Part shown: positions 24,194 through 57,305 of the stretch, piece by piece
How positions within the stretch are numbered: the first letter of the stretch is position 1
How the letters are laid out: every line of letters begins with the position of its first letter
DNA from: an uncultured Anaerolineae bacterium
GTDB lineage: Bacteria > Chloroflexota > Anaerolineae > VGOG01
NCBI GenBank assembly: GCA_964510205.1
Contig: CAZEBW010000004.1
Span: forward strand, 3,638-67,637
Reading direction: 5' to 3'
DNA: 64,000 bases
The notes under the pieces: generated by a model
Database searches by the model: none
What the model was told of the DNA's origin: nothing
The model's input: only the letters and a program-made list of their open reading frames with translations
Position numbers and translations under genes: made by a program

Positions 24194-24228
24194 GGGTCAC
24201 TCTCCTTGTCATCTGTAAATGGGCAGAT

Positions 24229-25569: not shown

Positions 25570-25621
25570 TTTCTAGCTCCAAATCACGCGATACACCGAA
25601 CGTTATTGTAGATGCATGAAT

Positions 25622-25650: not shown

Positions 25651-25704
25651 GGCATCCAAAATACTGGATAGACATACACCGTATCGTTCAAGGAGTTGGG
25701 GTAA

Positions 25705-26070: not shown

Positions 26071-26249
26071 CCCCTCGAAACTCTCAACACGTGAGTCAAA
26101 TTCATTGAGCGATTGACCAGCTCACAGGCATATTCCCTTACCAATTTGACATCAGCAGGTTTTGAGGATGTCTGCTCAGGGCTGCAGGCCATGACCACCG
26201 GCATTAGAAAACAAAACAGAAGTAGCAAGACAATCTTTTTCATGAGCAC
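26025..26249 (-). CDS. Lipoprotein signal peptide ORF (74 aa); possibly the N-terminal part of a frameshifted gene
   Basis: MLMKKIVLLLLFCFLMPVVMACS is a lipobox signal. The ORF ends 45 nt after the next ORF begins in another frame. Confidence 0.4.
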   Translation of the reverse strand: MLMKKIVLLLLFCFLMPVVMACSPEQTSSKPADVKLVREYACELVNRSMNLTHVLRVSRGWTETMRQPFAGKWN

Positions 26250-29502: not shown

Positions 29503-31119
29503 TTGATGAAAGCTATACTGTCTCCAAGTGGCAGACGTAAAACGTCAAGCGTGAAACGTGAAACGTCAAACGTAGAACGTCAAGCGTCAGGTGCCAGGGG
29601 TCAAACGTTGAGGTTCAAAGCTATCTTGGCGACCTTGCTGATAAGCTTGGGGGCGCTGATCTTGTGCCAATCCCTGAGGGTGGAAGGGTCGCCCGTCCCC
29701 GCCTCTCCTGTCCTCCAGACTGAGGAGGAGAGGACGGCGGCGAGCGACGCGCCGTATCGGGCCCGCATCGTGATCAGCACTTCCTCTGACTGGACGCGGC
29801 TCTACGTTCGAGGTGGAGAGCGCATTTTGAACGCCAAAACTGCTATCCTGCAGGGCGACGCCGCCACGACGAAAGCGGAGTGGGACGGCGACGAGCTCTA
29901 TTTGGAACAGCCTCTGGCCAATGCTCCAGCCCAGACGGTCAAAGTGCAGTACGATCTGGTGATGACGGGCCTGGACAGTGACGGCCACGTCTTCTTCGAG
30001 AGCCAGAAAGGCGATTTGGGCGTCACCACCACGGAGTTCTACAATTACAGCTCATCTTCCGCTACTCCCATCGCCTCCTGGTCCAATCTGCTGGACAAAG
30101 CGGGCGATCCTTCCAATCCCTTCTCTTTTTCCATAGCCAGTTCCCATTTCACAACGGGTGGTCCCCTGCCCCTGCGGCACGTCTCGCCCAGATTGGTTTT
30201 GGCCTTTTATTATCCCTGGTACGATCTCGATTCCTGGTCGAGCCCAGTTCTCGAGGACCATCCGCTCATGCCTGCTAGTTCCGGCGACGTGGAAGCCATC
30301 ACCAGGCACGTCACCTGGGCACAGCAGCATGGCATTCACGGCTTCATCTCGTCCTGGTGGGGTTCGGGCAACTACCGCGATGCCAATTTCGCCAAGTTGC
30401 TCTCCGTGGCGGAAGGCACCGATTTCAAAGCAACTATCTACTTCGAAACCCTGGGCGAACGTTTCAGGACCCCCCAGGACGTTGTTCATCAGTTGGAGTA
30501 CGTCCTGGATTCCTACAGCGATCACCCCAACTTCCTGCGCTATCGGGGCCAGCCGGTGATTTTTCTTTACGCTGTGGACCACGTAGCCAGAGAGCCCGGC
30601 CAACCCCCCCTTCAGTCCTGGCAAGCCATACTGGGGCAGATGCGGGCTGATGGTTACGATGCAGTGTGGCTCGGCCAGACCTTCGATCCCAGCTATCTGC
30701 AGGTGTTCGACGGCCTGCACGCCTACGGCTTCTATGCCCCAGATATGGCTGAGGTGTACGCTTCGGTTTCGGGCCAGGTGAGGAGCTATCAATTCCTGCA
30801 CGACCCGACCGCCGAGCGGAAGATCTGGGCGCCAGCGGTCATGCCGGGCTATGACGACGACCTGTTGGGCCGCCCAGGTTCCTGGTATCTGGATCGAGCC
30901 GGTGGGGACGCCTACGGCTTCACTTTCCAAGCGGCCATTCAGTCCCAGGCCGATTGGATCGTCATCACCAGCTTCAACGAGTGGTGGGAGCACACTCACA
31001 TCGAGCCCAGCGACCGCTACGGGTTCACTTATCTGGGGCTGACTAAGGAGTGGTCGGACGCTTTTCTGGCTGGAGCTCCTCAACTCACTTTCCTGCCCCT
31101 GATCACCAAGAACTGGTAG
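29503..31119 (+). CDS. Membrane-anchored glycoside hydrolase, GH99-like
   Basis: N-terminal TM anchor. LAFYYPWYDLDSW and ITSFNEWWEHTHIEPS resemble GH99 endo-alpha-mannosidase blocks (recalled from memory). An alternative TTG start at 29608 would exclude the repeat-encoded tail. Confidence 0.5.
   Translation: MMKAILSPSGRRKTSSVKRETSNVERQASGARGQTLRFKAILATLLISLGALILCQSLRVEGSPVPASPVLQTEEERTAASDAPYRARIVISTSSDWTRLYVRGGERILNAKTAILQGDAATTKAEWDGDELYLEQPLANAPAQTVKVQYDLVMTGLDSDGHVFFESQKGDLGVTTTEFYNYSSSSATPIASWSNLLDKAGDPSNPFSFSIASSHFTTGGPLPLRHVSPRLVLAFYYPWYDLDSWSSPVLEDHPLMPASSGDVEAITRHVTWAQQHGIHGFISSWWGSGNYRDANFAKLLSVAEGTDFKATIYFETLGERFRTPQDVVHQLEYVLDSYSDHPNFLRYRGQPVIFLYAVDHVAREPGQPPLQSWQAILGQMRADGYDAVWLGQTFDPSYLQVFDGLHAYGFYAPDMAEVYASVSGQVRSYQFLHDPTAERKIWAPAVMPGYDDDLLGRPGSWYLDRAGGDAYGFTFQAAIQSQADWIVITSFNEWWEHTHIEPSDRYGFTYLGLTKEWSDAFLAGAPQLTFLPLITKNW
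29534..29590. repeat. Heptamer tandem array GAAACGT (reverse complement of the TTTCACG family)
   Basis: gacgtaaaacgtcaagcgtgaaacgtgaaacgtcaaacgtagaacgtcaagcgtcagg. It lies in the 5' end of the 29503 ORF and is encoded as RRKTSSVKRETSNVERQAS. Confidence 0.8.
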
Positions 31120-31160
31120 GTCAATCTAGACTCTACTGAAAGAAGGTGAACTGCTGGCAA

Positions 31161-31207
31161 GACCCTAAAGGTTTCCAAAACCTTTAGGGTCTCCACGCTG
31201 CTTTTTT
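31161..31207 (+). terminator. Rho-independent terminator
   Basis: 14-bp perfect stem gaccctaaaggttt / aaacctttagggtc, with a T-run (gcttttttc) a few nt downstream. Confidence 0.6.
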
Positions 31208-38893: not shown

Positions 38894-40990
38894 GTCAATC
38901 AGGTGGGTGAAGATGGTGTAATCGGTGTCCATCTCTGCCTCAGCTCGCCAGTAGAGGGTCAGGTGGATCTCCTCGTCTGGCCTAAGCTCGACTTTGTCCA
39001 CTTTGTATCCGATCAGAGTGACCTTGTTATCCAGGTTGAAATCCAACGGGTTATCAATCGCTACCTCCCGACGTTCTCGCGGGAGCATCTTCAACTGACC
39101 GATGACGACGCTTGGGGGATCAAGTTTTGAACCAGTGGTGGGGTCGTAGTGCCCCACCTCAACTCGCACGAGGCTGGGCGCTTGGGCGTCCTCGCTGATG
39201 GGCAGCCGATAGGCGTCGGCGATGATCCCCCCTGGGGCCCACAAGCTGGTGGGATACGAACCCCAACCGGGATAGGTGTCCTCAGATCCCACTAGTTCGC
39301 CCCCGCGCCCCAGCAGGTGGATAAACAGGTAGTAGTCCTTCTCCTCCATCTCCGCCAGCCCCTGCCAGTAGAAAGTGACGCCCAGCGTCTCGCCCGGCCT
39401 GACCGTCTCTCTATCTAGTTTGAAACCGAGCAGTCGGATTTTCTCTCCAAAATCGTGGACCACCCCTGGCGGGACCTCGCTGGGGGAGACGATGGGCGGC
39501 CTGGCGTAGGCAGGGTGGATGTAGACAAATGGACAGAGGGCGGCGAAGGCGAACATGGCCAGACCTATCACCGTCACCAGGATGTTAACGTATCTCCCAG
39601 ATACCAGTTGGCTCAGGCCCAGCATCAGCAGGACGGATATGGCGGAGATGGCGGGAAATAGCAGCCGTCCCTGGCTGGCGGGCGTCGTCCACGTCCAGCG
39701 AACTAGTCCCGCGAAGACGATGCCCAGCCAGAGGATGAGGACAAAGAAACCAGGTTTTTCCCGTTTCACAGTACTTCCCTGGGCGTTTGGAGTGTTCGTA
39801 AACTGGTGTGTTTTGGGTCCAAAGGATGCGAAAAACCTGGTTTCTGACAACCAACGCCGTCTCACAAACCAAATCCCCAAGCCCACCAGGGCCAGCAAGC
39901 TTACCACGTCCAGGATGGCGTAGGCGGCGGGCGCAACCAAGATGCTGAACCAGCCAAACAGCGCCCAGAAAGACATGCGCAGGCCCCGAAACTCGCCCCA
40001 CAGTTCTGACAGATTCGATGGCCCACTATCTCGGCCCACCACGGCCAGCATGGCGTTGAGGCCGGTCGGGTCCCCGTAAAGCTGCCAATTCCTGACGTAC
40101 CACCAGCCAGCCACCGCCAGCACTACGGCAAGGACGATCAGCCCCCCGATCAACGGCCTCGCCGACCGGCGGCGGTAGGCTTGCACGACGAGGACGACGG
40201 CGGTCAAGATCAACAGGCCCAGGCCGCTGAGCTTGGAGAGGCAGGCCAAACCTAGGACGAGGCCCAACAACACGTAATACGCAATACGCAATACGAACAG
40301 GCGGCGTGTTGCGTACTGCGTATTGCGTATTTCGTATTGCGTATTGCGTACCAACAGAAGCAGCGTCAGTGACGATAGGAAGACCACTAGATTGTCGTTG
40401 TTGATGGAGCTGCTGATGAACAAGAACTGCGGGATGAAGGCGTTGATGGCTGCGGCGCCGAGGGCGAGGTGTTCGCGGTCAGGGAAGACCTCCAGAGCGA
40501 GTCTATGCGTCAAGAACACGGTGCCTGCCCCCAGGAGCACCGACAGCAGGCGGACGAGGTGCACCGCCAAAGCTGTGCCCTGAAAGGGGAAACTCTCCCG
40601 CCGGGTATGGACGATCACGTTCTTGTTGCCTGCATCCAGCGGCGTGCCGACGTTGCGCTGGGGATTGTACCAGAGTAGGTCCTCCGCCTCGCTGGTATCG
40701 CTCCAGAAAGTGGTCAGTGCGCCGATCAGGTAATACAGAGGCGGCTGGCTGCCCTCCTGCTCCCACAATCCCGGCTCTTCGGGGTTCTGCACCGGCAGTC
40801 CCTTCCCATCAGCAAGATGCTTGATGAAGAAGTAGTGGTAGATCTCATCGGGCGCCTCGAAGATGGGCGTGACCAGGCTGTAGGTGATGCCCAGGGCGAT
40901 GAACGTGGTTAGAATTAGGGTTATGGCCCAGTGTTGTCTCATAGTGCAAAGTCCTACGTCCCACGTCCTACGTCTCACGTCCGAAGTCAT
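38882..40990 (-). CDS. GT-C fold glycosyltransferase (PMT/ArnT-like, GT39/83 type), paralog 1; truncated by an in-frame TAA
   Basis: N-terminal loop FEAPDEIYHYFFIKHLADGKGLP (acidic DE motif), about 11 TM helices, and C-terminal LTLYW-type modules. ATGA start/stop overlap with paralog 2. Confidence 0.8.
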   Translation of the reverse strand: MTSDVRRRTWDVGLCTMRQHWAITLILTTFIALGITYSLVTPIFEAPDEIYHYFFIKHLADGKGLPVQNPEEPGLWEQEGSQPPLYYLIGALTTFWSDTSEAEDLLWYNPQRNVGTPLDAGNKNVIVHTRRESFPFQGTALAVHLVRLLSVLLGAGTVFLTHRLALEVFPDREHLALGAAAINAFIPQFLFISSSINNDNLVVFLSSLTLLLLVRNTQYEIRNTQYATRRLFVLRIAYYVLLGLVLGLACLSKLSGLGLLILTAVVLVVQAYRRRSARPLIGGLIVLAVVLAVAGWWYVRNWQLYGDPTGLNAMLAVVGRDSGPSNLSELWGEFRGLRMSFWALFGWFSILVAPAAYAILDVVSLLALVGLGIWFVRRRWLSETRFFASFGPKTHQFTNTPNAQGSTVKREKPGFFVLILWLGIVFAGLVRWTWTTPASQGRLLFPAISAISVLLMLGLSQLVSGRYVNILVTVIGLAMFAFAALCPFVYIHPAYARPPIVSPSEVPPGVVHDFGEKIRLLGFKLDRETVRPGETLGVTFYWQGLAEMEEKDYYLFIHLLGRGGELVGSEDTYPGWGSYPTSLWAPGGIIADAYRLPISEDAQAPSLVRVEVGHYDPTTGSKLDPPSVVIGQLKMLPRERREVAIDNPLDFNLDNKVTLIGYKVDKVELRPDEEIHLTLYWRAEAEMDTDYTIFTHLIDEAA
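40273..40351. repeat. Inverted pair of heptamer arrays AATACGC / GCGTATT inside a CDS
   Basis: gtaatacgcaatacgcaatacgaa...ttgcgtactgcgtattgcgtatttcgtattgcgtattgcgtac, translated as VRNTQYEIRNTQYATRRLFVLRIAYY. Confidence 0.85.
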
Positions 40991-41024
40991 TGACTTAGGA
41001 CCTCGGACTTAGGACCTAGGACTA
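40951..41024. repeat. Inverted heptamer arrays GTCCTAC(G) / GGACCTA spanning a gene junction
   Basis: gtcctacgtcccacgtcctacgtctcacgtcc and ggacctcggacttaggacctaggac. These encode the N-terminus of paralog 1 and the C-terminus of paralog 2. Confidence 0.75.
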
Positions 41025-43332
41025 TTCTCACTTTGCTCAACAGGATTCGGTTGCCCATCAGCCGGCCGTCCTGGTCGAGGAGGTCTAAGCGATTCCCGGT
41101 CTCAGCCAGGTAGAGCCCCACCTCGATCTCGTAGACGTCGGGAGGGGCGTCGGGGGCGATGTCTAGCTCGTATTGGTCCACGACGATTTGCCCCCTGGCC
41201 CAGGCGGAAGTGGAAGGCTGCGGCTGGCGGTCCGCTCCTGCCCAGATCTGATCTCCCTCTCTCAGCAGGTGGACGAAGACGGTGTAGGCGTCCCTCATCT
41301 CGGCCAGGCTCTGCCAGTACAGAGTAAGGTGGATGGCTTCGCCCGGCTCGGCCTTTCTGCGGTCCATCTCGTAGCCCACCAGGGCGATCTGGCCCCCAAA
41401 GTTGAAATGCACCGGATTGGGCAGCCCGGTTTCGGACCTGGGCAAGACCCCGATTTTCCCGAAGCGCACGTTATCTCCCGCAAGTTCTCCATTGGCCCCG
41501 TACACGGGTAGGCGTTCGCCCGTCGCAGCGTCGTAAGGCCCCACCTCCAGTTGGGCCGAACTGGGGGCGTAGGTCGTCTCTGGCAGCGTCAGGGTGTAGG
41601 CGTCCGCGATGGCGTCGCCGGCCTGCCACAGCGTGGTAGGGAAGCTGCCCAGTCCGGGGAAGGTGTTCCTCTGGGCTATGACGAGATCGTTTTCGTCCAG
41701 CAGGTGAACGAAGACGGCGTAGTCCCGGTTCATCTCGGCCAGGGATTGCCAGTACAGGGTGACGGTTAGCGAATCGCCGGGTTGCAGGTTGTAGGTTGTA
41801 GGTTGCAGGTTGTAGCCCAGCAGCTTCATCACTCCGCCGAAGTTCATATCCAGGCGATTTGGGATGGCCTCGATCTGTTCGGGAGAGAGCAGGGGCGGCC
41901 TGGCGTAGGCTGGGGCGATGTAGGCCACGGGACAGATGCAGGCGAACACGAACATCGCTCCGGCCAGCAGGGCTGTGGCCTTGCCTCGCCAGCGGGTGGG
42001 AATGAGTTGTAACCATCCCAGCAGGGGCAGGATGGCGAGGGACGCAGTGGCTGGGAAGAGGTGCCGCCCAGAGGGTGCAAAGACCCACTGCAGCCAGCGC
42101 AGCAGGGCGGCGAAGACCAGTAAGCTCCACAGCAGGAGCAGGGCTAAGCCCTGCCATGTGTCATTGCGAGGAGCGGAGCGACGAAGCAATCTCCTCCTTG
42201 CGGCTTGGGGATTGCTTCGCTTCGCTCGCAATGACACATCCGTGAGTTTGGTCCCGTTTCTAACGACTAGAACTAACAGCCCCAGGGCGCCCAGGCGCAC
42301 CACAATTCGCAGGACGGTGTAGATCCAAGGGTGGACGTGGACATTGCCCCAGCCGAAGGCGGCCCAAAAGGACAGCTCCATCTGAGAGAACTCGTGGATC
42401 AACTCGCCGAGGGTGAGCTGCGGCCGGCCGGGGCCCACGATGGCTTGGTGGATCTGCACCCCCAGCGGGTCGCCGTGCAATCGCCAATTCAAAGTATACC
42501 ACCATCCGGCTACGATGGCAACAACAGCAAAGACGATCAGGCATGCCTTGAGAAAGGCCCACCCAGAGCCTCTGCGCCAGGCGGCCATGGCGATGGCCAC
42601 GACCGCAGCAGGCAGCAGGGCCAGCGCGCTCGCTTTGGTGATGAGGGCCAATCCCACGGTCAGCCCCAGCCAGACCAGACGGCGGGTGGAGAGGCCCCTT
42701 CTCCTCAGGCGGACCATGAGCCACAGGGCCAGGGTGCACAGGGCCGACACTGCGCTGTCGTTGCTCACTGCACTTGATATAAAGATGAACTGCGGATTGA
42801 AGGCCACCAGGCCCGCTGCACCAGCGGCGAAAGAACGTTGCCGGGGGAACAACTCCAGCGCAATCAGATAGGTGGCCAAGACGGTGGTTGCTCCCCAGAG
42901 CACCGACACCAGGCGGGCCATACGAACGGCCAACACCGCGCCGCGATAGGGGAAGCGTTCCTCGTTGGTGTGAAGCACTCGGTTTTTGTTGTCGTTGACC
43001 GTGCCAGGCGCGCTGTAGCCCCAGAAAGGATTGAGCCACGCCAGGTTCTGCCAATCGTCGTCTTCGATCCAGAACGTAGCCAAAGCCGCCGTGACATAAT
43101 ACAGTGGGGGCTGGGTGGCCTCCTGTCTCATCAGAGGCTGCGTTTGCGCCAGGCTCTGCACCGGCAGACCTTTCCCGTCGCCCAGCCATTTGACGTAAGG
43201 GTAATGCCACAACTCGTCGGGCTTCTCGAAGAGGGGCGTGGCTGCGTTGTAGGCGATGCCCAGGGCGAAAAACGCGGTTAGGATTAGGATGATGGCCCAA
43301 TGTTGTTTGATGGTCCGAGGTCCCCTATCCAT
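40987..43332 (-). CDS. GT-C fold glycosyltransferase (PMT/ArnT-like), paralog 2
   Basis: FEKPDELWHYPYVKWLGDGKGLP, multi-TM core, and two C-terminal modules of about 120 aa (TVTLYWQSLAEM..., HLTLYWQSLAEM...). Confidence 0.85.
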   Translation of the reverse strand: MDRGPRTIKQHWAIILILTAFFALGIAYNAATPLFEKPDELWHYPYVKWLGDGKGLPVQSLAQTQPLMRQEATQPPLYYVTAALATFWIEDDDWQNLAWLNPFWGYSAPGTVNDNKNRVLHTNEERFPYRGAVLAVRMARLVSVLWGATTVLATYLIALELFPRQRSFAAGAAGLVAFNPQFIFISSAVSNDSAVSALCTLALWLMVRLRRRGLSTRRLVWLGLTVGLALITKASALALLPAAVVAIAMAAWRRGSGWAFLKACLIVFAVVAIVAGWWYTLNWRLHGDPLGVQIHQAIVGPGRPQLTLGELIHEFSQMELSFWAAFGWGNVHVHPWIYTVLRIVVRLGALGLLVLVVRNGTKLTDVSLRAKRSNPQAARRRLLRRSAPRNDTWQGLALLLLWSLLVFAALLRWLQWVFAPSGRHLFPATASLAILPLLGWLQLIPTRWRGKATALLAGAMFVFACICPVAYIAPAYARPPLLSPEQIEAIPNRLDMNFGGVMKLLGYNLQPTTYNLQPGDSLTVTLYWQSLAEMNRDYAVFVHLLDENDLVIAQRNTFPGLGSFPTTLWQAGDAIADAYTLTLPETTYAPSSAQLEVGPYDAATGERLPVYGANGELAGDNVRFGKIGVLPRSETGLPNPVHFNFGGQIALVGYEMDRRKAEPGEAIHLTLYWQSLAEMRDAYTVFVHLLREGDQIWAGADRQPQPSTSAWARGQIVVDQYELDIAPDAPPDVYEIEVGLYLAETGNRLDLLDQDGRLMGNRILLSKVRIVLGPKSEVLSQ
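41779..41816. repeat. Heptamer array GGTTGTA/GGTTGCA inside a CDS
   Basis: gggttgcaggttgtaggttgtaggttgcaggttgtag, translated as YNLQPTTYNLQP. Confidence 0.85.
42154..42240. repeat. Palindromic (MITE/REP-like) element, copy 2, in-frame inside the GT-C paralog 2 CDS
   Basis: catgtgtcattgcgaggagcggagcgacgaagcaatc...gattgcttcgcttcgctcgcaatgacacatc, translated as a loop ...DVSLRAKRSNPQAARRRLLRRSAPRNDTW... Confidence 0.8.
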
Positions 43333-43418
43333 AGTCCATAGTCCTAGGTCCGATGGAAGGCGGCCTCGGACCTAGCGCGATTTCACAAAACAGGCATTGA
43401 TTCTTGAGACAGCGTCCG

Positions 43419-43530
43419 CCAGGGGCTCCGCTGCGCTCAAGCCCCTGGCTCAGTCTACAAAGCCCCCGCTGGGGCTGGGGTCGTCAGGCCGCAGGCCTTT
43501 GTACCTGAGCCCGGCGGCTTCAGCCCCGGG
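43419..43530. repeat. Intergenic nested-hairpin element
   Basis: gccagggg...cccctggc, and ctcagtctacaaagcc...ggcctttgtacctgag enclosing gcccc/ggggc stems. Confidence 0.4.
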
Positions 43531-43583
43531 CGGAGTGGCGGCGGAGTCAACCTTTGTTGTGTGATGCAGTGCTAGGCTTGGAT

Positions 43584-45926
43584 TTATTTGACTCGTACTT
43601 TGCTCAACAGCACGCGGTCGTCCAGCAGCCGCCCGCCCTCCCCCACGATTCTCAGGCGGTCGCCTGTCTCCGCCAGGTAGAAGCCTATCTCGACGTCGTA
43701 CACGTCGGCGGGAGTGTCGGCATAGATGGTAAGTTCGTATTCGTCCACTATCGTCTGGCCGGGCTGCCAAGTCGAAGTGGGGGACTTGCCGTCCAGGGGC
43801 CAGCTATCCTCTTGGGCCCAGATGCGGTTCTCTTCTCCCAAAACGTGGGTGAACACGGAGTAGTCTTCTTTCATGTCAGCCAGCCCCTGCCAGTAGAGGG
43901 TCAGGTGGATGGTCTCGCCGGGCGCGGCCGTCCGTCGGTCCATATCGTATCCGACGAGGGCGATCTTGTTTGCGAAGTTGAAGTGGACGGGGTTGGGCGC
44001 CTCTGCTTCAGCTCGGGGCAGGATCTCGAATTGGTGGAAGCGGACGTTGTCGCCCAGGGCCTCTCCATTGGGAGCGTAGGCCGACAGCCGCTCCCCGGTG
44101 TCGAAGTTGTAGAGTCCCACGGCCAGTTGGGCTTGGTTGGGGGCGAAGGCCGTCTCTGGCAGGATGAGGACGTAGCGGTTGGCGATGGCCTCTCCTGGCG
44201 ACCAGAGGCTGGTGGGATAGAGGCCCTGTCCGGGGTACATGTCTCGTTGGGCGACGATGAGCTCGGTTTGGTCGAGCAGGTGGACGAAGGTGCTGTAGTT
44301 CTCGTTCATTTCGGCCAGGGCTTGCCAGTAGAGGGTGACCTCCAGTGAATCGCCAGGTTTCAGGTGACTGGGTATTGGGTATTGGGTATTGGGTATTGCG
44401 TAGCCTAGCAGCTTGATCACTTCGCCGAAGGAGACGTCGAGGCGGTTGGGGATGGCCGCGATCTCTGCTGGTGAGAGGGGTTGGGGTTTGGCGTAGGCGG
44501 GGGCGATGTAGCGGAAGGGGGTGGCGGCGGCGATGATGAACATCAGGCTGCCCAGCAGGCAGGCCAGCGTTTTGGTGTAAGCGAAGCGGCGGTTTTTGTA
44601 AGCGAAGCGACGGCGTCGGGGCACGAACTGGCTCAGGCCCAAGAAGAGCAGGATGGAGAGGGCCGAGATAGCTGAAAAGACCAGTCGCCCTTGAGAGGAC
44701 CAGGTCAGCAGCGCCCAGCGGATCAGGGATATGAACACGATGGCCGGCCAGGCCAGCAGCAGCGCTACTTTGATCCAGGCCTCTGGCCGTGGTTTGTCTC
44801 CAATCAATTTGCGAATCAGGAAGGCGATCACCCCCAGGGCGGCTGCTATGGCCATGAGATTCAGCAGGTCGTAGACCCAGGCATCCATGGGCACGTTCAC
44901 CCCGCCGAACAGGCCCCAGTACGACATGGCGAAGCCCTCACGCTCCCCCCACAATTGACGGAGGGTGGCGGGCGGGTGGCGCCGGCCCAGAATGTCCAGG
45001 AACACGTTTAGCCCCAGGGGGTCGCCGTAGAGCTTCCAATTCCTGACAAACCACCAGCCTGACAGGAGTGCAGCCAGACCCACCACGATGAGGCCGCCTT
45101 GCAGGAGAGTTCGCCAGGAGCGTTGACGGTAAGCAGCGTAGGCGACGGTCAGGCCCGCCAGCGCCAGGAGACCGATGGCGCTCTCTTTGGTCAGGATGGC
45201 CAATCCTATGACCAGCCCCAGCCATGCCCAATCGCGGTTTGCGGTTTGCGGTTTGCGATTTGCGATTTGTGGTTTGCGATTTGTGATTTTGACCATCATC
45301 AGCAGGGCCAGGCTGCACAAGGGCACCACCAAGTTGTCGTTGTTGATCGCGCCGCTGACGAACAGGAACATGGGAGTGAAGGCGTTGACGGCGGCTGCGC
45401 CCAGGGCCAAGTCCTCGCGGCCGGGGAAGATCTCCAGAGCGAGCAGGTAAGTCAGCAGCACCGTGGCCGCTCCCATCAACACCGAGAGGAAGCGTATGAG
45501 GTGCACGGCCAGGGCCGTCCCATGCCAGGGGAAGGCCTCTTGTTCGGAGTGTATGACCAAATTGGTGTTGCCGTCGGCGGTCAGCACGCCGTTATCCACG
45601 TGGGGGTTGGGCCATAACAGGGGCGGCTGGCCGTGGTAGGCGTCGTCGGTGTCAATCCAGAAAGTGGCCAGGGCGCCCAGGGCGTAGTACAGGGGCGGCT
45701 GGCTCCCCTCCTGCCGCCAGGGCTGATCAATGCCGGGATCCTGCACGGGTAGACCGTGGCCGTCCGCCAGGTGCTTGACGAAGGGGTAGTGCCACAACTC
45801 GTCGGAGGCCTCGAAGATGGGTGTGACTACGCTGTAGGCAACGCCCAGGGCGATAAACGTGGCCAGGATGAGGGCGATGGCTAAAGGTTGTAGGTTGTAG
45901 GTTCTAGATTTTAGGGTTGCGTTCAT
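43584..45926 (-). CDS. GT-C fold glycosyltransferase (PMT/ArnT-like), paralog 3
   Basis: FEASDELWHYPFVKHLADGHGLP, multi-TM core, and two C-terminal modules. ATGA overlap with paralog 4. Confidence 0.85.
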   Translation of the reverse strand: MNATLKSRTYNLQPLAIALILATFIALGVAYSVVTPIFEASDELWHYPFVKHLADGHGLPVQDPGIDQPWRQEGSQPPLYYALGALATFWIDTDDAYHGQPPLLWPNPHVDNGVLTADGNTNLVIHSEQEAFPWHGTALAVHLIRFLSVLMGAATVLLTYLLALEIFPGREDLALGAAAVNAFTPMFLFVSGAINNDNLVVPLCSLALLMMVKITNRKPQIANRKPQTANRDWAWLGLVIGLAILTKESAIGLLALAGLTVAYAAYRQRSWRTLLQGGLIVVGLAALLSGWWFVRNWKLYGDPLGLNVFLDILGRRHPPATLRQLWGEREGFAMSYWGLFGGVNVPMDAWVYDLLNLMAIAAALGVIAFLIRKLIGDKPRPEAWIKVALLLAWPAIVFISLIRWALLTWSSQGRLVFSAISALSILLFLGLSQFVPRRRRFAYKNRRFAYTKTLACLLGSLMFIIAAATPFRYIAPAYAKPQPLSPAEIAAIPNRLDVSFGEVIKLLGYAIPNTQYPIPSHLKPGDSLEVTLYWQALAEMNENYSTFVHLLDQTELIVAQRDMYPGQGLYPTSLWSPGEAIANRYVLILPETAFAPNQAQLAVGLYNFDTGERLSAYAPNGEALGDNVRFHQFEILPRAEAEAPNPVHFNFANKIALVGYDMDRRTAAPGETIHLTLYWQGLADMKEDYSVFTHVLGEENRIWAQEDSWPLDGKSPTSTWQPGQTIVDEYELTIYADTPADVYDVEIGFYLAETGDRLRIVGEGGRLLDDRVLLSKVRVK
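44368..44405. repeat. Heptamer array GGGTATT inside a CDS
   Basis: ctgggtattgggtattgggtattgggtattgcgtagcc, translated as IPNTQYPIPS. Confidence 0.85.
45229..45293. repeat. Heptamer array GGTTTGC/GATTTGC (about 8 copies) inside a CDS
   Basis: cgcggtttgcggtttgcggtttgcgatttgcgatttgtggtttgcgatttgtgatttt, translated as KITNRKPQIANRKPQTANRDW. Confidence 0.85.
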
Positions 45927-48900
45927 TGCACTTGCACCTTGCTCAACAGAATGCGGTCGCCGGGCAAAGGTTCGCCCTGTTCATCGAAAGCGGGAAGTCG
46001 CTGCATGGTCTCCAAATCGTACATCCCCACTTCGATCTGGTACTCGCCGGCCGGTGCGGCCGCGTCCACGATGATCTCGTATTCGTCTACCACGACCTCG
46101 CCGGGAAGCCAGCTCGTCGTCGGATGCGCGCCCCTCATGGGAAGGTTATCTTTTTGCCCCCAGGTGCGATTCTGGGCGTCTACGAGGTGGGTGAAGACGG
46201 TGTAGCTGGTCTCCATTTCTTGCTGTAAGCGAAGCGGCGCTTGCCAGTAGAGGGTGAGGTGCAGCGTGCCGCCTGGCTTCACGGTGGTCTTGTCGAGATC
46301 GTAGCCGAGGAAGGCCACCTTGTCAGCCAGGTTCGCTCGCAAGGGATGTTGGATGTCGGTGGGCGCGGTGAAAAGCCGCTCAGGGGCGATTACCGACAAT
46401 GTCGCCAGAGGTTGGAAGTCGGAAGTTGGAGATTGGAGGTTGGAAGGTTGAATTTTGAAGTTTAAGCTTTGCTCGCCCGTTGGAGCAGCGGCATCAACCG
46501 CCAGGTCGTATTGGCCGCGAATGACCTCGCCTTCCTTCCAGCGGCTGGTGGGGTATTCTTCGTTGGCCAATGGGAACTCTCCCCTGGCCCAAACGTTTCC
46601 CGTGCTGTCTTGCATCTGTAGATGAAGGCGGTAGTCGCTTTCCATCGAGCGCAGCGCCCGCCAGAAGAGCGCGGCTCGCATTGTCTCCCCCGCCCGCGCT
46701 TCGGTGGACGACAGGTCGTAGCCCAGGAGTTCCACCTGGCCGTCGAAGTCGTGACGCAGGGGGTGGGGGATGGCCAGCTCCTCGATGGTCGGCGGCACGC
46801 TGGGGCTGGCTACGGCGACTGTCCCCAAGGCGTACTCCGTACCCGCTGGCGCGTTCCTTTCGTCCAAGATGCGCAGGCTTTGCAGCGTGTCCACATCATA
46901 AACGACCAGCTCCACTTGATAGCGGCCCGGCGGGATGCCAGGCAGCAGGGAGAGGGTATGATGCCTCTCCACGATCCCGCCCACCTCCCAGGCATAGGTC
47001 GCCAGGCCGTCTTCGTTCTCCAGCCATTCGTCTGTTTGGCTCCAAAGGCGCCCCTGTTCGTCCACCAGGCGGAGGGAGAGGGCGTAGCCCTCCTGCATCT
47101 GCGCCTGGGTCTCCCACCGAAGGGCGACCCCCAACTGCTTTCTGTACTCGATGATGTCCCCGGTGAAGCCGTGGCCCGTCAGCCGCAAGCGGTTGCCGAA
47201 ATTGACGTTAGCCTGGACCTGGATGGGGCTCAAATCCAGGTCCAGAGGAGAGGTGAGGAGATAGCGAGAGACGGTGGTATGGGGAAGGGCCTCTCGGCCG
47301 ATGAGCAGGGCATGGGTATTCAGTTGGTAACTGATCCAATTGCCCATATCGCTTTCTGGGTAGGCCACGTACCATAGCTGTCGGGGCGCGGCGGACTCTG
47401 TTAGCTTGTCGGTCATGTCGGTCCAGCCCTGGCTATCGGAGACGACGTAGTAGGTCAGCGGCCCTTGATAATGCTTGACGAAGGGCGAGTCGGCGTCGAG
47501 CAGCACGACGTCGTCCGGCTGAGCCTGGCTCTCCAAATAGGCGATCAGCTCTTGGTAGTAAGTGTTGGGATAGATCCAGGCGTAGTCCACGCCGCGAATC
47601 TTGACCACGTGCTCTGGCTGCTGTTGACCGTGGAGAGCCGCTGTGACGGGCGAGTCTTGCTGCACATCGCTGACGTAGAGCACGGCGTAATCGGCGGTAG
47701 CTGTGTTGTGCTCCGTCAGTGCTTCCGTCTGGCCCTTGAACAGGGGGGCGAACCCTGGGATGTCCCAGGTGGCAACGCGAAGGTCTGTTGCATTCTCCTT
47801 TTGATTCAAATATCTGGCCGCCAGATCCATGCCCTCGCCCCAGCCCGCGGGCAGGATTTGGATGGCTCTGGATGTGCCGCCCAGCAGGGGGTTGGCGTAG
47901 GCCAGATAGTAGGGATGGTAGGGCAAGGCGAGAGCAGCCTGGAGGAGCACCACTAAGCTCAGAGCCAGCTCGATCCCCCATCTCCAATGCCTGGATAGGA
48001 AGGCTTCGATGAAATAGACCCACCCAACAGCGGCCAGGATGTCAAGGGCCAGAAAGGCGGGCAATAGATACCGCTCGAACTTCTTGGCCCCCACGGCCAG
48101 AGTGATCGTGACCAGGGAAACGTAGACGAGCAGGGCGAGTACCTCGAACCACTTCGAACCTCTTTTCTTTACGATGGCCCAAAATGCTGCTGCCAGTAGG
48201 CCCAGCCAGACGAGGGGCGTCGTCCTGAAGAGCAGGCTGAAGGGATAGAACCAGGGGCCTGGGTCGGAGACGGACTGACCGAGGAAGAAGTTGACGGGGT
48301 GAGGGGTGGCGGCGAAGCGGTGGGCGAGTCCGAAGGTGCCGCGCAGGGTCTCGACGGGAGAGACCCACATAGCTGGCCAAAGGGCCACAAAAGCGATAAC
48401 CGCTACCATGCACCACACCGAGAGGGACCGTAGCGAACTGAAAATCGGCTTGGCCCACGCCTGCCCTGAGCCTTGTCCTGAGGCCGCTTCGCCTACAGTC
48501 GAAGCGTGTCGCCGGAGGATTGCCGACTTCGTGAGACCCTCGAAGCTGAGCAAAAGGGCGGCGAAGGGTAGCAGAGCGAAGGCGGTGGCCTTGGTCAGAA
48601 AGGCCAGGCCGGCTAGGCACCCTGAGAGGCCGAGGTAAACAAGGGAGCGATTATGCCTCAGGTAGACGAGAAGGCTCAGGACGGACAGGATCATCAGGTT
48701 GGCCGCCGCCCCGTCGGTGTGGAAGACTCGCGAATGGGCCAGGTGGAAGGGGTCGAAGCAAATCAAGAGCGCGGCCAGGAGGGCCACCCTCCCCCCGAAG
48801 AGTTTCCTGGTCAGGAGGTATACCCCCACCGCGCTCGCTGCGCCGAGGAGAACGAGTGGGAGCTTGGCTGCCACCAGGAAGAGGGCCAGGCGGCGCAGGG

Positions 48901-49234
48901 CAGCTACGTTGTACAAATCAAGCGTGGCTAGCTGTTGCAGCCAGTTCCACTCGGCCGCCCCTTGCCCCAGCAGGAGCTGGCCGGCTGCCCCCAAAGCCCC
49001 GGCCCACATGATGGTCACCCCAGGCGCCCCCACCTGGAAGGTATCGGCGAAGCGCCCGCTCTCTATGGCAGAGAGGAAGCGGAGCGAGCGGTAGACCCAC
49101 ATTGGCTCGTCCCAGGTGATGAAGGTGTTGAGGGCCAGGATGCGGGGCAGCAAGGCCAAAACGAAAAGGCCCAGGCAGATGAGCGTTTGTCGCTTCTTGT
49201 TACGAAATCGCATTCGCCGCTGGCTCATTTTCAA
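45923..49234 (-). CDS. GT-C fold glycosyltransferase (ArnT/PMT-like), paralog 4, 1103 aa
   Basis: ITWDEPMWVYRSLRF N-loop, multi-TM core, a central soluble region and three C-terminal modules. Confidence 0.8.
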   Translation of the reverse strand: MKMSQRRMRFRNKKRQTLICLGLFVLALLPRILALNTFITWDEPMWVYRSLRFLSAIESGRFADTFQVGAPGVTIMWAGALGAAGQLLLGQGAAEWNWLQQLATLDLYNVAALRRLALFLVAAKLPLVLLGAASAVGVYLLTRKLFGGRVALLAALLICFDPFHLAHSRVFHTDGAAANLMILSVLSLLVYLRHNRSLVYLGLSGCLAGLAFLTKATAFALLPFAALLLSFEGLTKSAILRRHASTVGEAASGQGSGQAWAKPIFSSLRSLSVWCMVAVIAFVALWPAMWVSPVETLRGTFGLAHRFAATPHPVNFFLGQSVSDPGPWFYPFSLLFRTTPLVWLGLLAAAFWAIVKKRGSKWFEVLALLVYVSLVTITLAVGAKKFERYLLPAFLALDILAAVGWVYFIEAFLSRHWRWGIELALSLVVLLQAALALPYHPYYLAYANPLLGGTSRAIQILPAGWGEGMDLAARYLNQKENATDLRVATWDIPGFAPLFKGQTEALTEHNTATADYAVLYVSDVQQDSPVTAALHGQQQPEHVVKIRGVDYAWIYPNTYYQELIAYLESQAQPDDVVLLDADSPFVKHYQGPLTYYVVSDSQGWTDMTDKLTESAAPRQLWYVAYPESDMGNWISYQLNTHALLIGREALPHTTVSRYLLTSPLDLDLSPIQVQANVNFGNRLRLTGHGFTGDIIEYRKQLGVALRWETQAQMQEGYALSLRLVDEQGRLWSQTDEWLENEDGLATYAWEVGGIVERHHTLSLLPGIPPGRYQVELVVYDVDTLQSLRILDERNAPAGTEYALGTVAVASPSVPPTIEELAIPHPLRHDFDGQVELLGYDLSSTEARAGETMRAALFWRALRSMESDYRLHLQMQDSTGNVWARGEFPLANEEYPTSRWKEGEVIRGQYDLAVDAAAPTGEQSLNFKIQPSNLQSPTSDFQPLATLSVIAPERLFTAPTDIQHPLRANLADKVAFLGYDLDKTTVKPGGTLHLTLYWQAPLRLQQEMETSYTVFTHLVDAQNRTWGQKDNLPMRGAHPTTSWLPGEVVVDEYEIIVDAAAPAGEYQIEVGMYDLETMQRLPAFDEQGEPLPGDRILLSKVQVQ
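46409..46468. repeat. Heptamer array GGTTGGA/AGTTGGA (about 8 copies) inside a CDS
   Basis: gaggttggaagtcggaagttggagattggaggttggaaggttgaattttgaagtttaagc, translated as LNFKIQPSNLQSPTSDFQP. Confidence 0.85.
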
Positions 49235-53678: not shown

Positions 53679-53848
53679 ATCTTACCTCAGTGGACGGATT
53701 ATAGACGAAAGCGTGGGTAAAGTCAATGCAGGCCAAACAGCATTTTCCCCCTCGTTGTAGAGGGGGATGACGATAGATCCGTCTGCTTTCACCTCTGCGA
53801 CCCTCCCGCAGACTCTGAGCCTGCGGGAGGGTGTTATTGGCTGTCGGT

Positions 53849-56074
53849 CTATGGCCCGAAGTTCTTGAGCACCAGCGGCAAATAGACGTGGTAGGCGGAT
53901 GTCGGCGTTGTCGTGGATGTGGCAGTGCTGGTTGCGGTAGGCGTAGGTGTGCGGGTGGCCGTTGGTGTGTTGGTCAGCGTTGGAGTCAGCGTGTTTGTAG
54001 GCGTTGGTGTGTTAGTCGGTGTTGAGCTTGGCGTGGCGGTAGAGGTTGATGTAGAGGTGGGCGTCGGCGTAGGCTCGTCTGTGATGCGCAAGATGAGGAG
54101 GCCACCTGCGTTATCGGCCACGTAGACGTAGTCCCCGGCCACCTGAACGCCTCTGGCATCGCCGGGCGTGTCAAAGGCCCCAACTTCGATGGGATTTTCC
54201 TTGTCAGCCACGGAGACGATCCGCAGGCCAGCGCTTCCATAGGCCACGTAGGCGAGGTTTCCTACGACCTGAACGTCGAAGGCCCAGCCACGGATGTCAA
54301 ATGAGCCGACCTCGGTGGGATGGGCCTTGTCGGCCACCGAGATGATCCGCAGACCGCCCCCCCGATCGGCGACGTAGGCATAACTGCCAGCCACGTGCAC
54401 ACCGCTTGCCCGGTCGGGTGTATCGCAGAAGCCTTCCTCTGTAGGATTGGCCTTGTCGGCAATGGAGATGACGCGCAGCCCGCTTTCTCCGTCGGCGACG
54501 TAAGCGTGGTTGCCGACCACGTGCACGCCGCTTGCCTGGTCGGGTGTATCGCAGAAGCCTTCCTCTGTGGGATTGGCCTCATCGGCAACGGAGATGATGC
54601 GCAGCCCGCTTTCTCCATCGGCGACGTAGGCATAAGCCGCTGTCGCTTCCGAGGCCGCTGCCGCTTCGCCCACTACATGAACGCCTTTGGCGTCATCGGG
54701 CGTCTCGGCGAAGCTGACTTCGGTGGGGTTTGCTTTGTCCGAAACGGAGATGACGCGCAGCCCAGCCACGCCATCGGCGACGTAGGCGTAAGCCGCTGCC
54801 GCTTCCGAGGCCGCTGTCGCTTCCGAGGCCGCTTCTGCTTCCGAGTCACCCACCACGTAAACGCCCTTAGCCGAACCAGTGGTATTCCAGAAGCCTTCTT
54901 CTGTAGGATTGGCCTTGTCGGCCACCGAGATGACTCTAAGTCCCTCGTCCCACTCAGCGACGTAGGCATAGTTCACTTCCGAGGCCGCTTCCACATAAAC
55001 ATCCCTTGCCTCGCCAGCGGTGTCGAAGAAGCCTTCCTCTGTCGGACTGGCCTTGTCGGCCACGGAGATGACTCGGAGGCCGCCTGTCTCATCGGCGACG
55101 TAAGCGCGGTTGTCAGCTACGTGAACGTCGAACGCTCGGTCGGGTGTGTCACAGGAACCGACTTCAGTGGGATTCTCCTTGTCGGCCACCGAGATGACCC
55201 GCAGCCCGCCGTAGTTGTGGGCGATGTAGGCATGGTCGCCCACAACGTGGACCTTCCTGGCATAGCCAGATAGGTCCAGATGGCCAGTCTCAGAAGGATT
55301 CTGCTTGTGGGCGACTGAGATCACCCGCAGACCTCTATCCCAATTGGTGACGTAGGCGTGGGCCGCTCCCGCTTCCGAGTCGTCCATGACGTGAACGCCA
55401 TTGGCCGAGCCTGGCATATCGAAGAAGCCGACCTCGGTGGGGTTGGCCTTGTCGGCGACGGAGATGATCCGAAGCCCTCCGGTTCCAGCAGCGACGTAGG
55501 CGTAGGCTCCCAAAACGTGGACGTCTTCTGCCGAGTCGGGCGTGTAGAGGGAGCCTACCTCGGTTGGATTCGCCTTGTCAGCAACGGAAATGATCCGCAG
55601 CCCGCTCCACTCGTCGGCCAGGTAGGCGTACTCGCCAACGACATGAACGCTGTGGGCACGGTCCAAATCTAGGTGACCTACCTCAGTGGGGTTGCCTTTG
55701 TCGGCAAGCGAGATGATCCTTAGGCCCCCGTCCCCAGCGGCGATATAAGCGTAGGCCGTTTCCACTTCCGAGTCCCCTTCCACGTGGATGTCCCTCACGA
55801 TGCCGGGGAGCGCTTCAGTGCGTCCCATCTCGGTGGGGTTGGCCGGATCGGAGACATCCACGATGACCAGCTTCAGCCCGTTGCCGACATAAGCGTACTG
55901 TCCGGCGACGTGAACGGCGTGAGTCGCTCCCCTAATCTGGCCCACTAACTCCAGCGCCAAACCGTTCTGGGCGCCCTGGGGCGGAAGGGCCAGCCCCGAA
56001 AGGGAAGTGCCCGCCAGGATAAGTGCGAGGCTGATGACGACCGGGGCAATCTTCCAGAGATGTTCTTTGTTCAT
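53849..56074 (-). CDS. Secreted LVIVD-repeat (beta-propeller) protein with Thr/Pro-rich linker and short conserved C-terminal tail
   Basis: Signal-anchor MNKEHLWKIAPVVISLALILAG. At least 12 repeats of GLR(I/V)ISVADKANPTEVG...DVHV.G.YAYVA. The C-terminal section is PTPTPTSTSTS... followed by YLPLVLKNFGP. Start taken at ATG 56074; 56086 is possible. Confidence 0.8.
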   Translation of the reverse strand: MNKEHLWKIAPVVISLALILAGTSLSGLALPPQGAQNGLALELVGQIRGATHAVHVAGQYAYVGNGLKLVIVDVSDPANPTEMGRTEALPGIVRDIHVEGDSEVETAYAYIAAGDGGLRIISLADKGNPTEVGHLDLDRAHSVHVVGEYAYLADEWSGLRIISVADKANPTEVGSLYTPDSAEDVHVLGAYAYVAAGTGGLRIISVADKANPTEVGFFDMPGSANGVHVMDDSEAGAAHAYVTNWDRGLRVISVAHKQNPSETGHLDLSGYARKVHVVGDHAYIAHNYGGLRVISVADKENPTEVGSCDTPDRAFDVHVADNRAYVADETGGLRVISVADKASPTEEGFFDTAGEARDVYVEAASEVNYAYVAEWDEGLRVISVADKANPTEEGFWNTTGSAKGVYVVGDSEAEAASEATAASEAAAAYAYVADGVAGLRVISVSDKANPTEVSFAETPDDAKGVHVVGEAAAASEATAAYAYVADGESGLRIISVADEANPTEEGFCDTPDQASGVHVVGNHAYVADGESGLRVISIADKANPTEEGFCDTPDRASGVHVAGSYAYVADRGGGLRIISVADKAHPTEVGSFDIRGWAFDVQVVGNLAYVAYGSAGLRIVSVADKENPIEVGAFDTPGDARGVQVAGDYVYVADNAGGLLILRITDEPTPTPTSTSTSTATPSSTPTNTPTPTNTLTPTLTNTPTATRTPTPTATSTATSTTTPTSAYHVYLPLVLKNFGP

Positions 56075-56099
56075 CTTTCCTTCCATTCGCTTCTCTTGC

Positions 56100-57305
56100 T
56101 CAGGTGATCTGATCTTGCAGAACTCTCTCGTAAAGCGCACCTGTTTTCTCAGCGATCTTCTCCCAGGTGAAGCTCTGGGCTAGTCTGGCCGCCCCCTCGC
56201 CCAGGCGCCGCCGCAGCTCGGCGTTCGACGCCAGTCTGGCAATGGCCTCGGCCAGCGCGACCGGGGCGTCGGGGGGGACGAGGAGGATGTTCTCTCCATG
56301 CACAAGCTCAGGCACGTCCGCTCGTGGGCGGGTGCTGACGGTGGGCAGGCCATGGGCCAGGGCGGCCATGAAGCTCCCCCGCCGGAACGAGGCCCCGTCC
56401 CGGTAGGGCAGCACGCAGATGTCGGAGGCCAGCAAGTTGGCTGAGACCTCGGCCTGGGGAGTGTAGCCCGTCCAAAACACGCTATCCGTCAGGCCCAGCT
56501 CCGCGATCAAACCTTCGACCCTCTTCAGATAGGCCAGGTTGGTGGGATCGCTGGAGCCTACTTTGCCCCCTACCATCATCAGTTGGAGGTTGGAGGTTGA
56601 TTGCATCAGCCTAGCCAGGGCACGTATCAGGGTTTCGGCTCCTTTGCTCTTGTTGAGGAAGCCGAAGTAGGAGAGCAGGATGTCATCCGGTCCCACGCCC
56701 CAACGGGCTCGCCAGGCCTCGCGGTCGTAGTCCGCCGGCGGTGCGGGGCTGATGTTGGAGCCGATGGGGATCAGCGATAGGGAGCGGATGGACGAATAAT
56801 CGGACAGCCTGGCGAAATCCTCGGCGTTGGTGGCGATGACGGCGTCGCTCCAGCGGGCCAGGGCCAGGTTCACCCACCAGCGCAGGGGGCCGGCTTTGGG
56901 GAAGAGGTAGGGCACCTTTAGATCGTGGAAGGTGACTACGGTCAACGGATGGTCTTTGGAAGAACGGGACGCGAGGCGCAGCGGCAGGAGATTGATGGCC
57001 GGGTGCATGTCGTAGGCGGCTGTCTGGTATTGGATGTTGACGATGTCGGAGCGGGTCTCGTTCAGTAGCTCGATGATGCGTCGCCAGGAGCCCCAATCCC
57101 ATTTCTCGATGATAGGGAAAAGGGACAAGTGACCAGTGACAAGGGGCAGCCCTGATCCCTTGTCCCTAGTCCCTAGTCCCTTGACCGAGGTGATAACGCT
57201 GACCTCAACTCCCAGCTCGGCCAGCGCCTTACCCAGCTCGTTGGTGAAATCTCCCACACCGCCTTGCATGGGTGGGAACTCGCCGCTGATTAGACACACT
57301 TTCAT
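56100..57305 (-). CDS. Glycosyltransferase family 4 (GT-B)
   Basis: MKVCLISGEFPPMQGGVGDF N-terminus and a C-terminal E-x7-E-type region (GSFMAALAHGLPTV...ELV). Confidence 0.85.
   Translation of the reverse strand: MKVCLISGEFPPMQGGVGDFTNELGKALAELGVEVSVITSVKGLGTRDKGSGLPLVTGHLSLFPIIEKWDWGSWRRIIELLNETRSDIVNIQYQTAAYDMHPAINLLPLRLASRSSKDHPLTVVTFHDLKVPYLFPKAGPLRWWVNLALARWSDAVIATNAEDFARLSDYSSIRSLSLIPIGSNISPAPPADYDREAWRARWGVGPDDILLSYFGFLNKSKGAETLIRALARLMQSTSNLQLMMVGGKVGSSDPTNLAYLKRVEGLIAELGLTDSVFWTGYTPQAEVSANLLASDICVLPYRDGASFRRGSFMAALAHGLPTVSTRPRADVPELVHGENILLVPPDAPVALAEAIARLASNAELRRRLGEGAARLAQSFTWEKIAEKTGALYERVLQDQIT
57122..57187. repeat. Imperfect inverted heptamer arrays (GGGACAA.. / CCCTAGT) inside the GT4 CDS
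   Basis: gggacaagtgaccagtgacaagggg...cccttgtccctagtccctagtcccttg, translated as KGLGTRDKGSGLPLVTGH. Confidence 0.7.

Follow-up and report, generated by a model that had tools for sequence, protein, structure and literature searches.

Two unrelated exported proteins encoded in a 64,000-nt stretch of contig CAZEBW010000004.1 from an uncultured Anaerolineae bacterium (the whole stretch is referred to below as the window), an LVIVD-repeat surface protein and a protein related to glycoside hydrolase family 99 (GH99-like), end in the same short peptide. In both cases it is a copy of the "YLP-box" of Chloroflexota. This motif is already curated in NCBIfam, where the models NF053834 ("ultrashort_CTERM") and NF050076 ("sort_motif_YLP") share the product name "YLP-box putative sorting motif-containing protein"; as far as the searched literature shows, it is unpublished and uncharacterized. 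When the two tails were scored on the NCBIfam models as isolated peptides of 21-33 residues, the LVIVD tail obtained 13.5 bits and the GH99-like tail 12.3 bits on NF053834, both passing the cut-off of 10. Other YLP tails, taken from related loci, score 15.2-19.1 bits on NF050076. A sequence-only reading of the window had previously suspected in this ending a C-terminal recognition tag of the sortase, exosortase or other anchoring type, adding that no matching known signal could be named; the two NCBIfam entries do name it.

The tails of the LVIVD and GH99-like proteins

The two genes and the relevant segments of their products lie at the following positions of the window.

53849..56074, minus strand: LVIVD-repeat choice-of-anchor B surface protein (open reading frame, PF08309, TIGR04312)
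55988..56074, minus strand: predicted Sec signal peptide of the LVIVD protein, MNKEHLWKIAPVVISLALILAGTSLSGLA (read from the sequence)
53897..54079, minus strand: Thr/Pro/Ser-rich linker of the LVIVD protein, 61 residues, 80% T/P/S
53861..53884, minus strand: YLP-box core YLPLVLKN of the LVIVD protein (six-frame regular expression)
29506..31119, plus strand: GH99-like protein, 537 residues (PF16317)
29611..29664, plus strand: N-terminal hydrophobic helix of the GH99-like protein, residues 36-53 (AlphaFold2 helix; hydropathy 2.70)
31090..31113, plus strand: YLP-box core FLPLITKN of the GH99-like protein (six-frame regular expression)

The LVIVD protein contains 13 LVIVD repeats (PF08309, E = 2.8e-113) and belongs to the choice_anch_B family TIGR04312 (121.5 bits against a cut-off of 100). 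Its translation probably starts with MNKEHL at 56074; the longest open reading frame (ORF) extends to 56140 and would overlap the upstream gene for a family 4 glycosyltransferase (GT4). The N-terminal segment has a maximum 15-residue hydropathy of 2.35, and the cleavage site of the predicted signal peptide was placed by judgement from the sequence. Between the last LVIVD repeat and AYHV runs the Thr/Pro/Ser-rich linker, which bears out the earlier description of a Thr/Pro linker of about 60 residues; the tail AYHVYLPLVLKNFGP follows. The ORF at 53849..56140 (minus strand) ends in TTTPTSAYHVYLPLVLKNFGP (longer excerpt, TSTTTPTSAYHVYLPLVLKNFGP), with FGP and the stop codon (53849-53860) following the YLPLVLKN core, so that the full ending is LPLVLKNFGP. 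The sequence-only reading had called the linker a classic one. It is not typical of the carriers at large, as a Thr/Pro linker precedes the motif in only 2 of 28 carrier clusters and in 1 of 26 LVIVD homologues; the LVIVD protein of the window is atypical in having one. With genes for protein O-mannosyltransferase-like (PMT_2) proteins nearby, the linker is a plausible substrate for O-glycosylation.

The GH99-like protein, identical to database protein P0001, is assigned to its family by PF16317 (Glyco_hydro_99, E = 9e-29; 101.1 bits against a gathering cut-off of 33). The ORF at 29503..31119 (plus strand) ends in GAPQLTFLPLITKNW, the tail being TFLPLITKNW; a single W and the stop codon (31114-31119) follow FLPLITKN. 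Its N-terminal helix may serve as a signal peptide or as a signal anchor. Both tails occupy the extreme C-terminus of proteins with an N-terminal hydrophobic segment (2.35 and 2.70), as a putative sorting motif should.

The shared tail had been placed correctly on both proteins, and these are the sole instances in the window: a search for LPL[IVLMA].[KR]N in all six frames of the 64 kb returned only the two tails, three (LVIVD) and one (GH99-like) residues before the stop. Given the residue composition of 47 ORFs of the window, one would expect 0.014 matches at any position and 1.3e-4 at C-termini. The probability of two or more C-terminal matches is approximately 9e-9, and 2000 shuffles produced no match at a C-terminus. 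The proteins themselves are unrelated, one being defined by LVIVD repeats and TIGR04312, the other by Glyco_hydro_99. Moreover, their tails differ in codon usage (Leu TTG versus CTG, Pro CCG versus CCC), which indicates that the common element is the peptide and not a DNA repeat.

The same distinction can be drawn among orthologues of the GH99-like protein (70-80% identity), which come from metagenome-assembled genomes of uncultured Anaerolineae, Anaerolineales and Chloroflexota. The tail at 11 orthologous loci reads (F/L)LP(L/I)(I/L)(T/I)KN plus 0-3 residues, spelled with four different codons for Leu, three for Pro, four at the Leu/Ile position and two for Lys; the six residues just upstream vary in amino acid. 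Synonymous codon changes next to a variable upstream spacer amount to purifying selection on the translated tail peptide, and by this codon comparison the YLP tail is selected at the protein level. Apart from the shortness of the motif, nothing favours the idea that the shared tail arose by chance or was brought along by a DNA repeat situated at the ends of genes. The probability of about 9e-9, together with synonymous sites that differ between the window copies and between orthologues while the peptide is kept, refutes such an origin, to which we attach a negligible probability.

One could also imagine that the tail belongs to the fold of its own protein, for instance as a closing strand of the propeller or a strand on the GH99 domain, with no part in sorting. 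A precedent is offered by one metagenomic family in which YLP-like strands open repeats (L138, L221, L139 and L178, described below). The AlphaFold2 (AF2) model of the GH99-like protein, made from a 95-sequence alignment, is confident as a whole (predicted local distance difference test, pLDDT, 87.8; predicted template-modelling score, pTM, 0.82); it shows residues 84-522 folded and leaves tail residues 528-537 at pLDDT below 50 without secondary structure, the tail being present only in the 26 orthologues of that alignment. A run on these 26 orthologues alone had a pLDDT of 54. In the LVIVD protein, 61 low-complexity residues part the tail from the propeller, and the same tail is found behind at least 28 unrelated folds. 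A structural role is thus very improbable.

Residue preferences, position and carriers of the YLP-box

The YLP-box consensus is [YFH]-[RKH]-[IV]-Y-L-P-L-V-[LM]-[KR]-N-[YWF]-[PQ]. The residue counts given below were taken from one representative per unrelated carrier cluster (n = 28), and they are to be read with the collecting expression in mind, which fixes positions 2 and 3 and restricts positions 1 and 4-7.

Position -3: aromatic or His
Position -2: Arg, His or Lys
Position -1: Ile, Val or Leu, 23/28
Position 1: Tyr 24/28, Phe 3/28
Position 2: Leu 28/28
Position 3: Pro 28/28
Position 4: Leu 25/28
Position 5: Val 25/28
Position 6: Leu or Met 18/28
Position 7: Lys 22/28, Arg 6/28
Position 8: Asn 22/28
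Position 9 onward: often aromatic, then Pro or Gln, then stop

Across the 28 clusters, the basic residue of the motif is followed by 0-6 residues, mostly 1-3; some carriers stop exactly at the K or R (VYLPLVVR, VYLPVIIK). These residue preferences are pertinent to another explanation, in which the motif would be a short interfacial membrane anchor: IYLPLVL would dip into the outer leaflet and Lys/Arg would snorkel to the head groups, with no partner involved. Six to seven consecutive hydrophobic residues and then an invariant basic residue suit such a design, as does the occurrence of the motif at either protein end or in linkers. On the other hand, the near-invariant Pro, the preferred Asn and the flanking aromatics argue for specific recognition, the membrane affinity of seven residues is weak, and the motif is confined to one bacterial lineage. 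We regard an interfacial anchor as improbable.

To what extent the motif belongs at C-termini was measured with a position-blind DNA pattern for Y-L-P-L-V-x-K-N, which was scanned over public metagenome and viral contigs.

Metagenome contigs, first 120 matches: at least 100 open codons upstream in 51, of which 24 (47%) lie within 8 codons of a stop
Viral contigs (control), 37 matches: at least 100 open codons upstream in 5, of which 0 lie within 8 codons of a stop

Against a generous expectation of about 3%, 24 of 51 corresponds to a binomial p of 3e-23. A looser regular expression at the protein level, applied to the same contigs, yielded 19 further instances outside the seed pattern, 10 of them within 7 residues of the stop; several metagenome contigs hold two to four carriers. 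An N-terminal hydrophobic segment is present in 28 of the 32 complete C-terminal carriers (88%), as compared to 23% of 1033 other coding-like ORFs from the same DNA (Fisher p = 4e-14); about one third of the 32 are GH99 orthologues, which lowers the number of independent cases, and the others show the same pattern. Enrichment at C-termini and among secreted proteins was the test on which the sequence-only reading had staked its proposal, and both enrichments were found.

By BLAST, the carriers of the YLP tail fall into 28 unrelated clusters. Their domains include DUF11, right-handed beta-helix, FG-GAP, SdrD_B, SpaA-like, Big_1/invasin and cohesin, along with 5'-nucleotidase and M4, C13 and C25 peptidases, a repertoire typical of surface proteins. 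Among genome loci of many phyla, 1.2 Mb in all, matches at C-termini were confined to Anaerolineae and Caldilinea records; none were found in the archaeal, acidobacterial and other loci of that set.

The motif also alternates with other anchoring devices. The C-termini of the best 120 LVIVD homologues (30-50% identity, several phyla) were sorted as follows.

Strict YLP-type tails: 26/120
Looser YLP-type tails (RVYLPSVLKQ-stop, VHLPLVLR-stop): 20/120
C-terminal domains of the type IX secretion system (T9SS) type: 30/120, two so named by NCBI
Hydrophobic helix plus basic tail: 5/120, one PGF-CTERM-like, ending in PGFEALFAVAGLLAVAYLVRRD
Other or no recognizable ending: 39/120, two with S-layer homology (SLH) domains

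By this alternation the YLP-box stands where homologues have established devices for sorting or anchoring. It is the very "choice-of-anchor" behaviour after which TIGR04312 is named, and it constitutes the strongest, if indirect, argument for YLP function, drawn as it is from a comparison of homologous endings. Distant GH99 homologues (45% identity or less) end at the catalytic domain, in a dockerin, in a helix plus basic tail or in a TIGR03437-type domain; the Caldilinea aerophila homologue (37% identity) also ends in FVYLPVIIK. Another recurrent ending, GSVLDN(T/E/L)TSDPTTVLPQ, closes three of the LVIVD homologues (P0155, P0163 and P0212), two of which, P0155 and P0212, carry the name Thermoanaerobaculales; a related stretch in P0235, SVVDNRSGDPVYIQP, is non-terminal. 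This may be a different lineage-specific tail.

Altogether, we favour, with moderate confidence, the view that the YLP-box is a linear tag, exposed on its carrier, which a dedicated partner in the envelope reads in order to retain the protein at the surface. Carriers would be exported by Sec through their N-terminal signal. The tag, too short to cross the membrane and not packed on its own protein, would then stay exposed as a short flexible peptide, whose linear motif would be recognized by this partner, be it a receptor or a processing enzyme, so that the cargo is kept or placed at the surface. Recognition would work without a free C-terminus at a fixed distance. In this way the tag would take the place held in homologues of other lineages by T9SS C-terminal domains, PGF-CTERM-like helices, SLH domains or dockerins. 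The suspected C-terminal recognition tag therefore stands in part: the motif is modular, selected at the protein level, located on exported proteins and found in the anchor slot; it is not strictly C-terminal, and its sorting function is a putative one.

Copies outside C-termini and candidate partners

A number of copies lie elsewhere in their proteins and keep the same flanking preferences. In four proteins the motif comes shortly after the signal peptide (L189, L231, L149 and L153). In others it stands between domains: flanked by Thr/Pro linkers on both sides (L204), between a beta-helix and a lectin-like domain (L208), between DUF11 repeats (L219), between LVIVD and a PPC-like domain (P0152), or between LVIVD and an S8 peptidase, where the sequence YLPLVLRN is directly followed by a typical mature-domain start (P0172). 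One protein (L142) has an internal and a C-terminal copy. In the product of L187:981-2357 (plus strand), the motif, within TSTPSTGPYPVYLPLVLKNGTPTNSMN, is apparently inserted in a loop of a glucose/sorbosone dehydrogenase (GSDH) propeller, between the halves of the Pfam match. Finally, L138:1791-3323 (minus strand), L139:6894-8162 (minus strand), L221 and L178 encode a family of lipoproteins made of beta-rich repeats with a weak DUF5719 match; a YLP-like strand, then GGW.T.f.i.N, opens each repeat except the first, which has no such strand. No homologues of this family were found in the window or in the PDB.

Copies away from the C-terminus argue against any mechanism that depends on the free end of the chain lying at a set distance, and equally against a sortase-like reaction in which the leaving group is held in the membrane. 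A linear docking motif or a protease site would accommodate such copies, and a classical C-terminal sorting signal would not. The protease option supposes that the motif marks a point of proteolytic maturation or a junction: a dedicated protease would cut there, removing N-terminal pro-regions, separating the modules of multidomain precursors or trimming the last residues, and C-terminal copies would be trimmed ends or remnants and not anchors. We regard this as the main rival of the envelope-partner view, and as unlikely. The copies directly after signal peptides (L189, L231, L149, L153) and those at domain junctions (P0172, P0152, L208) are what such a protease would call for. However, most copies lie 0-3 residues from the stop, and some end at K/R, in which case cutting after the motif would remove little or nothing; the swapping of anchors in homologues indicates localization and not maturation.

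A possible enzyme for this reaction is encoded at one locus. At L154:864-14231, four consecutive genes with C-terminal YLP-boxes (two cohesin-like, one GH-like and one SdrD_B) lie within a glycan cluster, which also contains a TMEM260/PMT-like gene, a fusion of a family 2 glycosyltransferase (GT2) with Bac_transf and a flippase-like gene. Beside the four genes, a 1156-residue protein combines a Wzz domain, a tyrosine autokinase (BY-kinase), a CPBP domain and an FGLLP-like membrane domain. The CPBP (Rce1-like) intramembrane protease domain has intact EExxxR and His motifs and a sub-threshold similarity to the myxosortase family (MrtJ 33 bits, Mrt_core 26 bits; cut-offs 75-100). CaaX motifs, which are ultrashort and C-terminal, are trimmed by enzymes of the Rce1 type, and the adjacency therefore counts in favour of a protease site. 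Relatives of this CPBP protein, 50-69% identical, occur across Anaerolineae and Chloroflexota, many of them fused to TPR, LysM and SH3, also HTH and PAS, domains. Three relatives were located on other contigs.

L238:10001-11167: CPBP subfamily gene at the 3' end of a GT2/GT4 cluster
L239:10001-11407: CPBP subfamily gene at the 3' end of a GT2/GT4 cluster
L240:10001-11482: CPBP subfamily gene at the 3' end of a GT2/GT4 cluster

The adjacency to YLP genes was not seen again on these three contigs, which speaks against the protease reading. No CPBP copy was found by phmmer in the window or in the other loci. The CPBP protease as partner of the YLP-box is a lead only.

Returning to the tag read by an envelope partner, several observations weigh against it. 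On NF050076, both window tails fall below the cut-off of 15 (14.6 bits for LVIVD, 12.1 for GH99-like), and the full-length proteins gave no match to NF053834 or NF050076 at E <= 10. By our reading of the lists, about one third of the credible in-frame matches are not C-terminal, about two thirds being so. When 529 ORFs from 38 YLP-positive contigs were clustered all against all, no partner emerged; only the GH99 synteny (FolC-like and Lon genes) and generic GT2 genes were recovered. The CPBP genes that end GT2/GT4 clusters on the three other contigs have no YLP gene within 10 kb. If the N-terminal anchor of the GH99-like protein were left uncleaved, a second retention device would be needless. 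Lastly, full-text literature searches found no paper mentioning the YLP-box motif and no experimental evidence on it, and nothing relevant was found in the literature searched for YLPLV-type strings and Chloroflexota sorting signals.

We advance only tentatively the proposal that the YLP-box is a position-independent docking peptide and, as such, a new helix-free mechanism of surface retention in Anaerolineae-type Chloroflexota, unrelated to sortase-like systems. Candidate readers of a docking peptide would be members of the CPBP subfamily with TPR, LysM or SH3 ectodomains, or an incomplete beta-domain that takes up the tag as a donor strand.

Genomic surroundings and comparison with known signals

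The LVIVD gene is part of a long envelope-glycan gene block (window positions 36974-58623, minus strand), whose order is: a Wzy_C ligase-like gene, four tandem PMT_2 genes, an LPG_synthase_TM gene with a flippase-like product, two type-I phosphodiesterase-like paralogues, the LVIVD gene, GT4 and GT2. Three of the PMT_2 paralogues (40987-49234) have a common C-terminal stretch, (D/N)R(I/V)LLSKV(Q/R)(V/I), which probably reflects paralogy. A sigma-70-like promoter match, TTGACT-17-TATAAT (11/12), lies at 53698-53726 (minus strand), between the LVIVD stop and the next gene. The GH99-like gene is flanked by a FolC-like Mur ligase gene and lon. At 31160-31192, 41 nt past its stop codon, there is an inverted repeat whose 15-bp arms match perfectly and enclose a 3-nt loop, and at 31202-31207 a run of T residues. 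With this run 9 nt from the stem, the repeat was not called as a terminator; a simple terminator scan called none after either the LVIVD or the GH99-like gene.

Elsewhere in the window, a block of ORFs at approximately 11800-26100 has a third-position GC content of 0.52-0.61, as compared to 0.70-0.87 in the remainder, and may be acquired DNA. Encoded there are a histidine kinase of 1245 residues with six GAF domains as well as SPFH and TPR proteins; the N-termini of two further ORFs resemble response-regulator receiver domains. A predicted lipoprotein (26441-27730, minus strand) has as its only Pfam match CHU_C, a T9SS signal domain, at residues 34-136; a location near the N-terminus is an odd one for this domain. 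No tRNA and no Rfam matches were found in the 64-kb window.

Little is understood of how Chloroflexota build their envelope and retain proteins there. A tag of 8-13 residues that is specific to a lineage and marks a large, diverse set of surface enzymes and adhesin-like proteins can serve as a simple predictor of the surface proteome in the Anaerolineae, which are abundant in wastewater, sediment and the subsurface and mostly uncultured, and it offers a handle on the sorting machinery. For the window itself the practical gain is small, namely that two of its products can be annotated as surface proteins with a YLP-box.

Known signals were considered in turn for the two tails. A sortase (LPXTG-type) substrate is excluded, as LPLVLKNFGP and LPLITKNW contain no T-G and have only 1-3 residues after the motif. 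PEP-CTERM, PGF-CTERM, GlyGly-CTERM and MYXO-CTERM substrates are excluded because the tail is too short for a helix, which agrees with the earlier remark that it could not form a transmembrane helix. Neither protein has a PF18962-type Pfam match that would denote a T9SS C-terminal domain; in homologues that possess this domain it can be recognized. Among NCBIfam sorting domains, no match other than the YLP-box was obtained on the tails. To our knowledge, a membrane helix is present in every characterized prokaryotic C-terminal sorting signal; a YLP-box without one is thus likely to act by a mechanism different from the sortase paradigm, and docking of the peptide would take the place of sortase-like transpeptidation. 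As outlined in two reports (10.1101/2023.06.07.544157; PMC11980579), sortase-, exosortase-, archaeosortase-, rhombosortase- and myxosortase-type signals consist of a signature, a membrane helix and a basic cluster. The tails of the window have neither a membrane helix nor a basic cluster after the signature and are therefore not signals of any of these types; of the kinds of tag that the sequence-only reading had suggested, the sortase and exosortase ones do not apply.

The closest relatives of the window tails are the NF053834 and NF050076 families themselves, with which they share the motif, the extreme C-terminal position and the exported nature of the carriers; the difference is that these are only curated motif models, labelled "putative", and that the window tails stay just under the cut-off of one of them. 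With the tripartite signals (LPXTG, PEP-CTERM, PGF-CTERM, GlyGly-CTERM and MYXO-CTERM) the YLP-box has in common a short C-terminal signature on Sec-exported surface proteins, modularity over unrelated cargo, lineage specificity and the same slot in "choice-of-anchor" families such as TIGR04312. It differs from them in being followed by 0-6 residues only and in occurring also near N-termini and at internal sites. The T9SS C-terminal domain (Por_Secre_tail, PF18962) is a positional functional analogue, which replaces the YLP tail in 30 of the 120 LVIVD homologues; however, it is a folded beta-sandwich of 70-100 residues found in diderm bacteria, whereas the YLP-box has 8-13 residues and no fold. 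The ultrashort eukaryotic tags KDEL, PTS1 -SKL and CaaX are read at a free C-terminus in a fixed position. They resemble the YLP-box in that a receptor or enzyme recognizes a few residues at or near the C-terminus as a linear peptide, with no membrane anchor in the signal. Unlike the YLP-box, these tags, which belong to another kingdom and are unrelated in sequence, require a free C-terminus.

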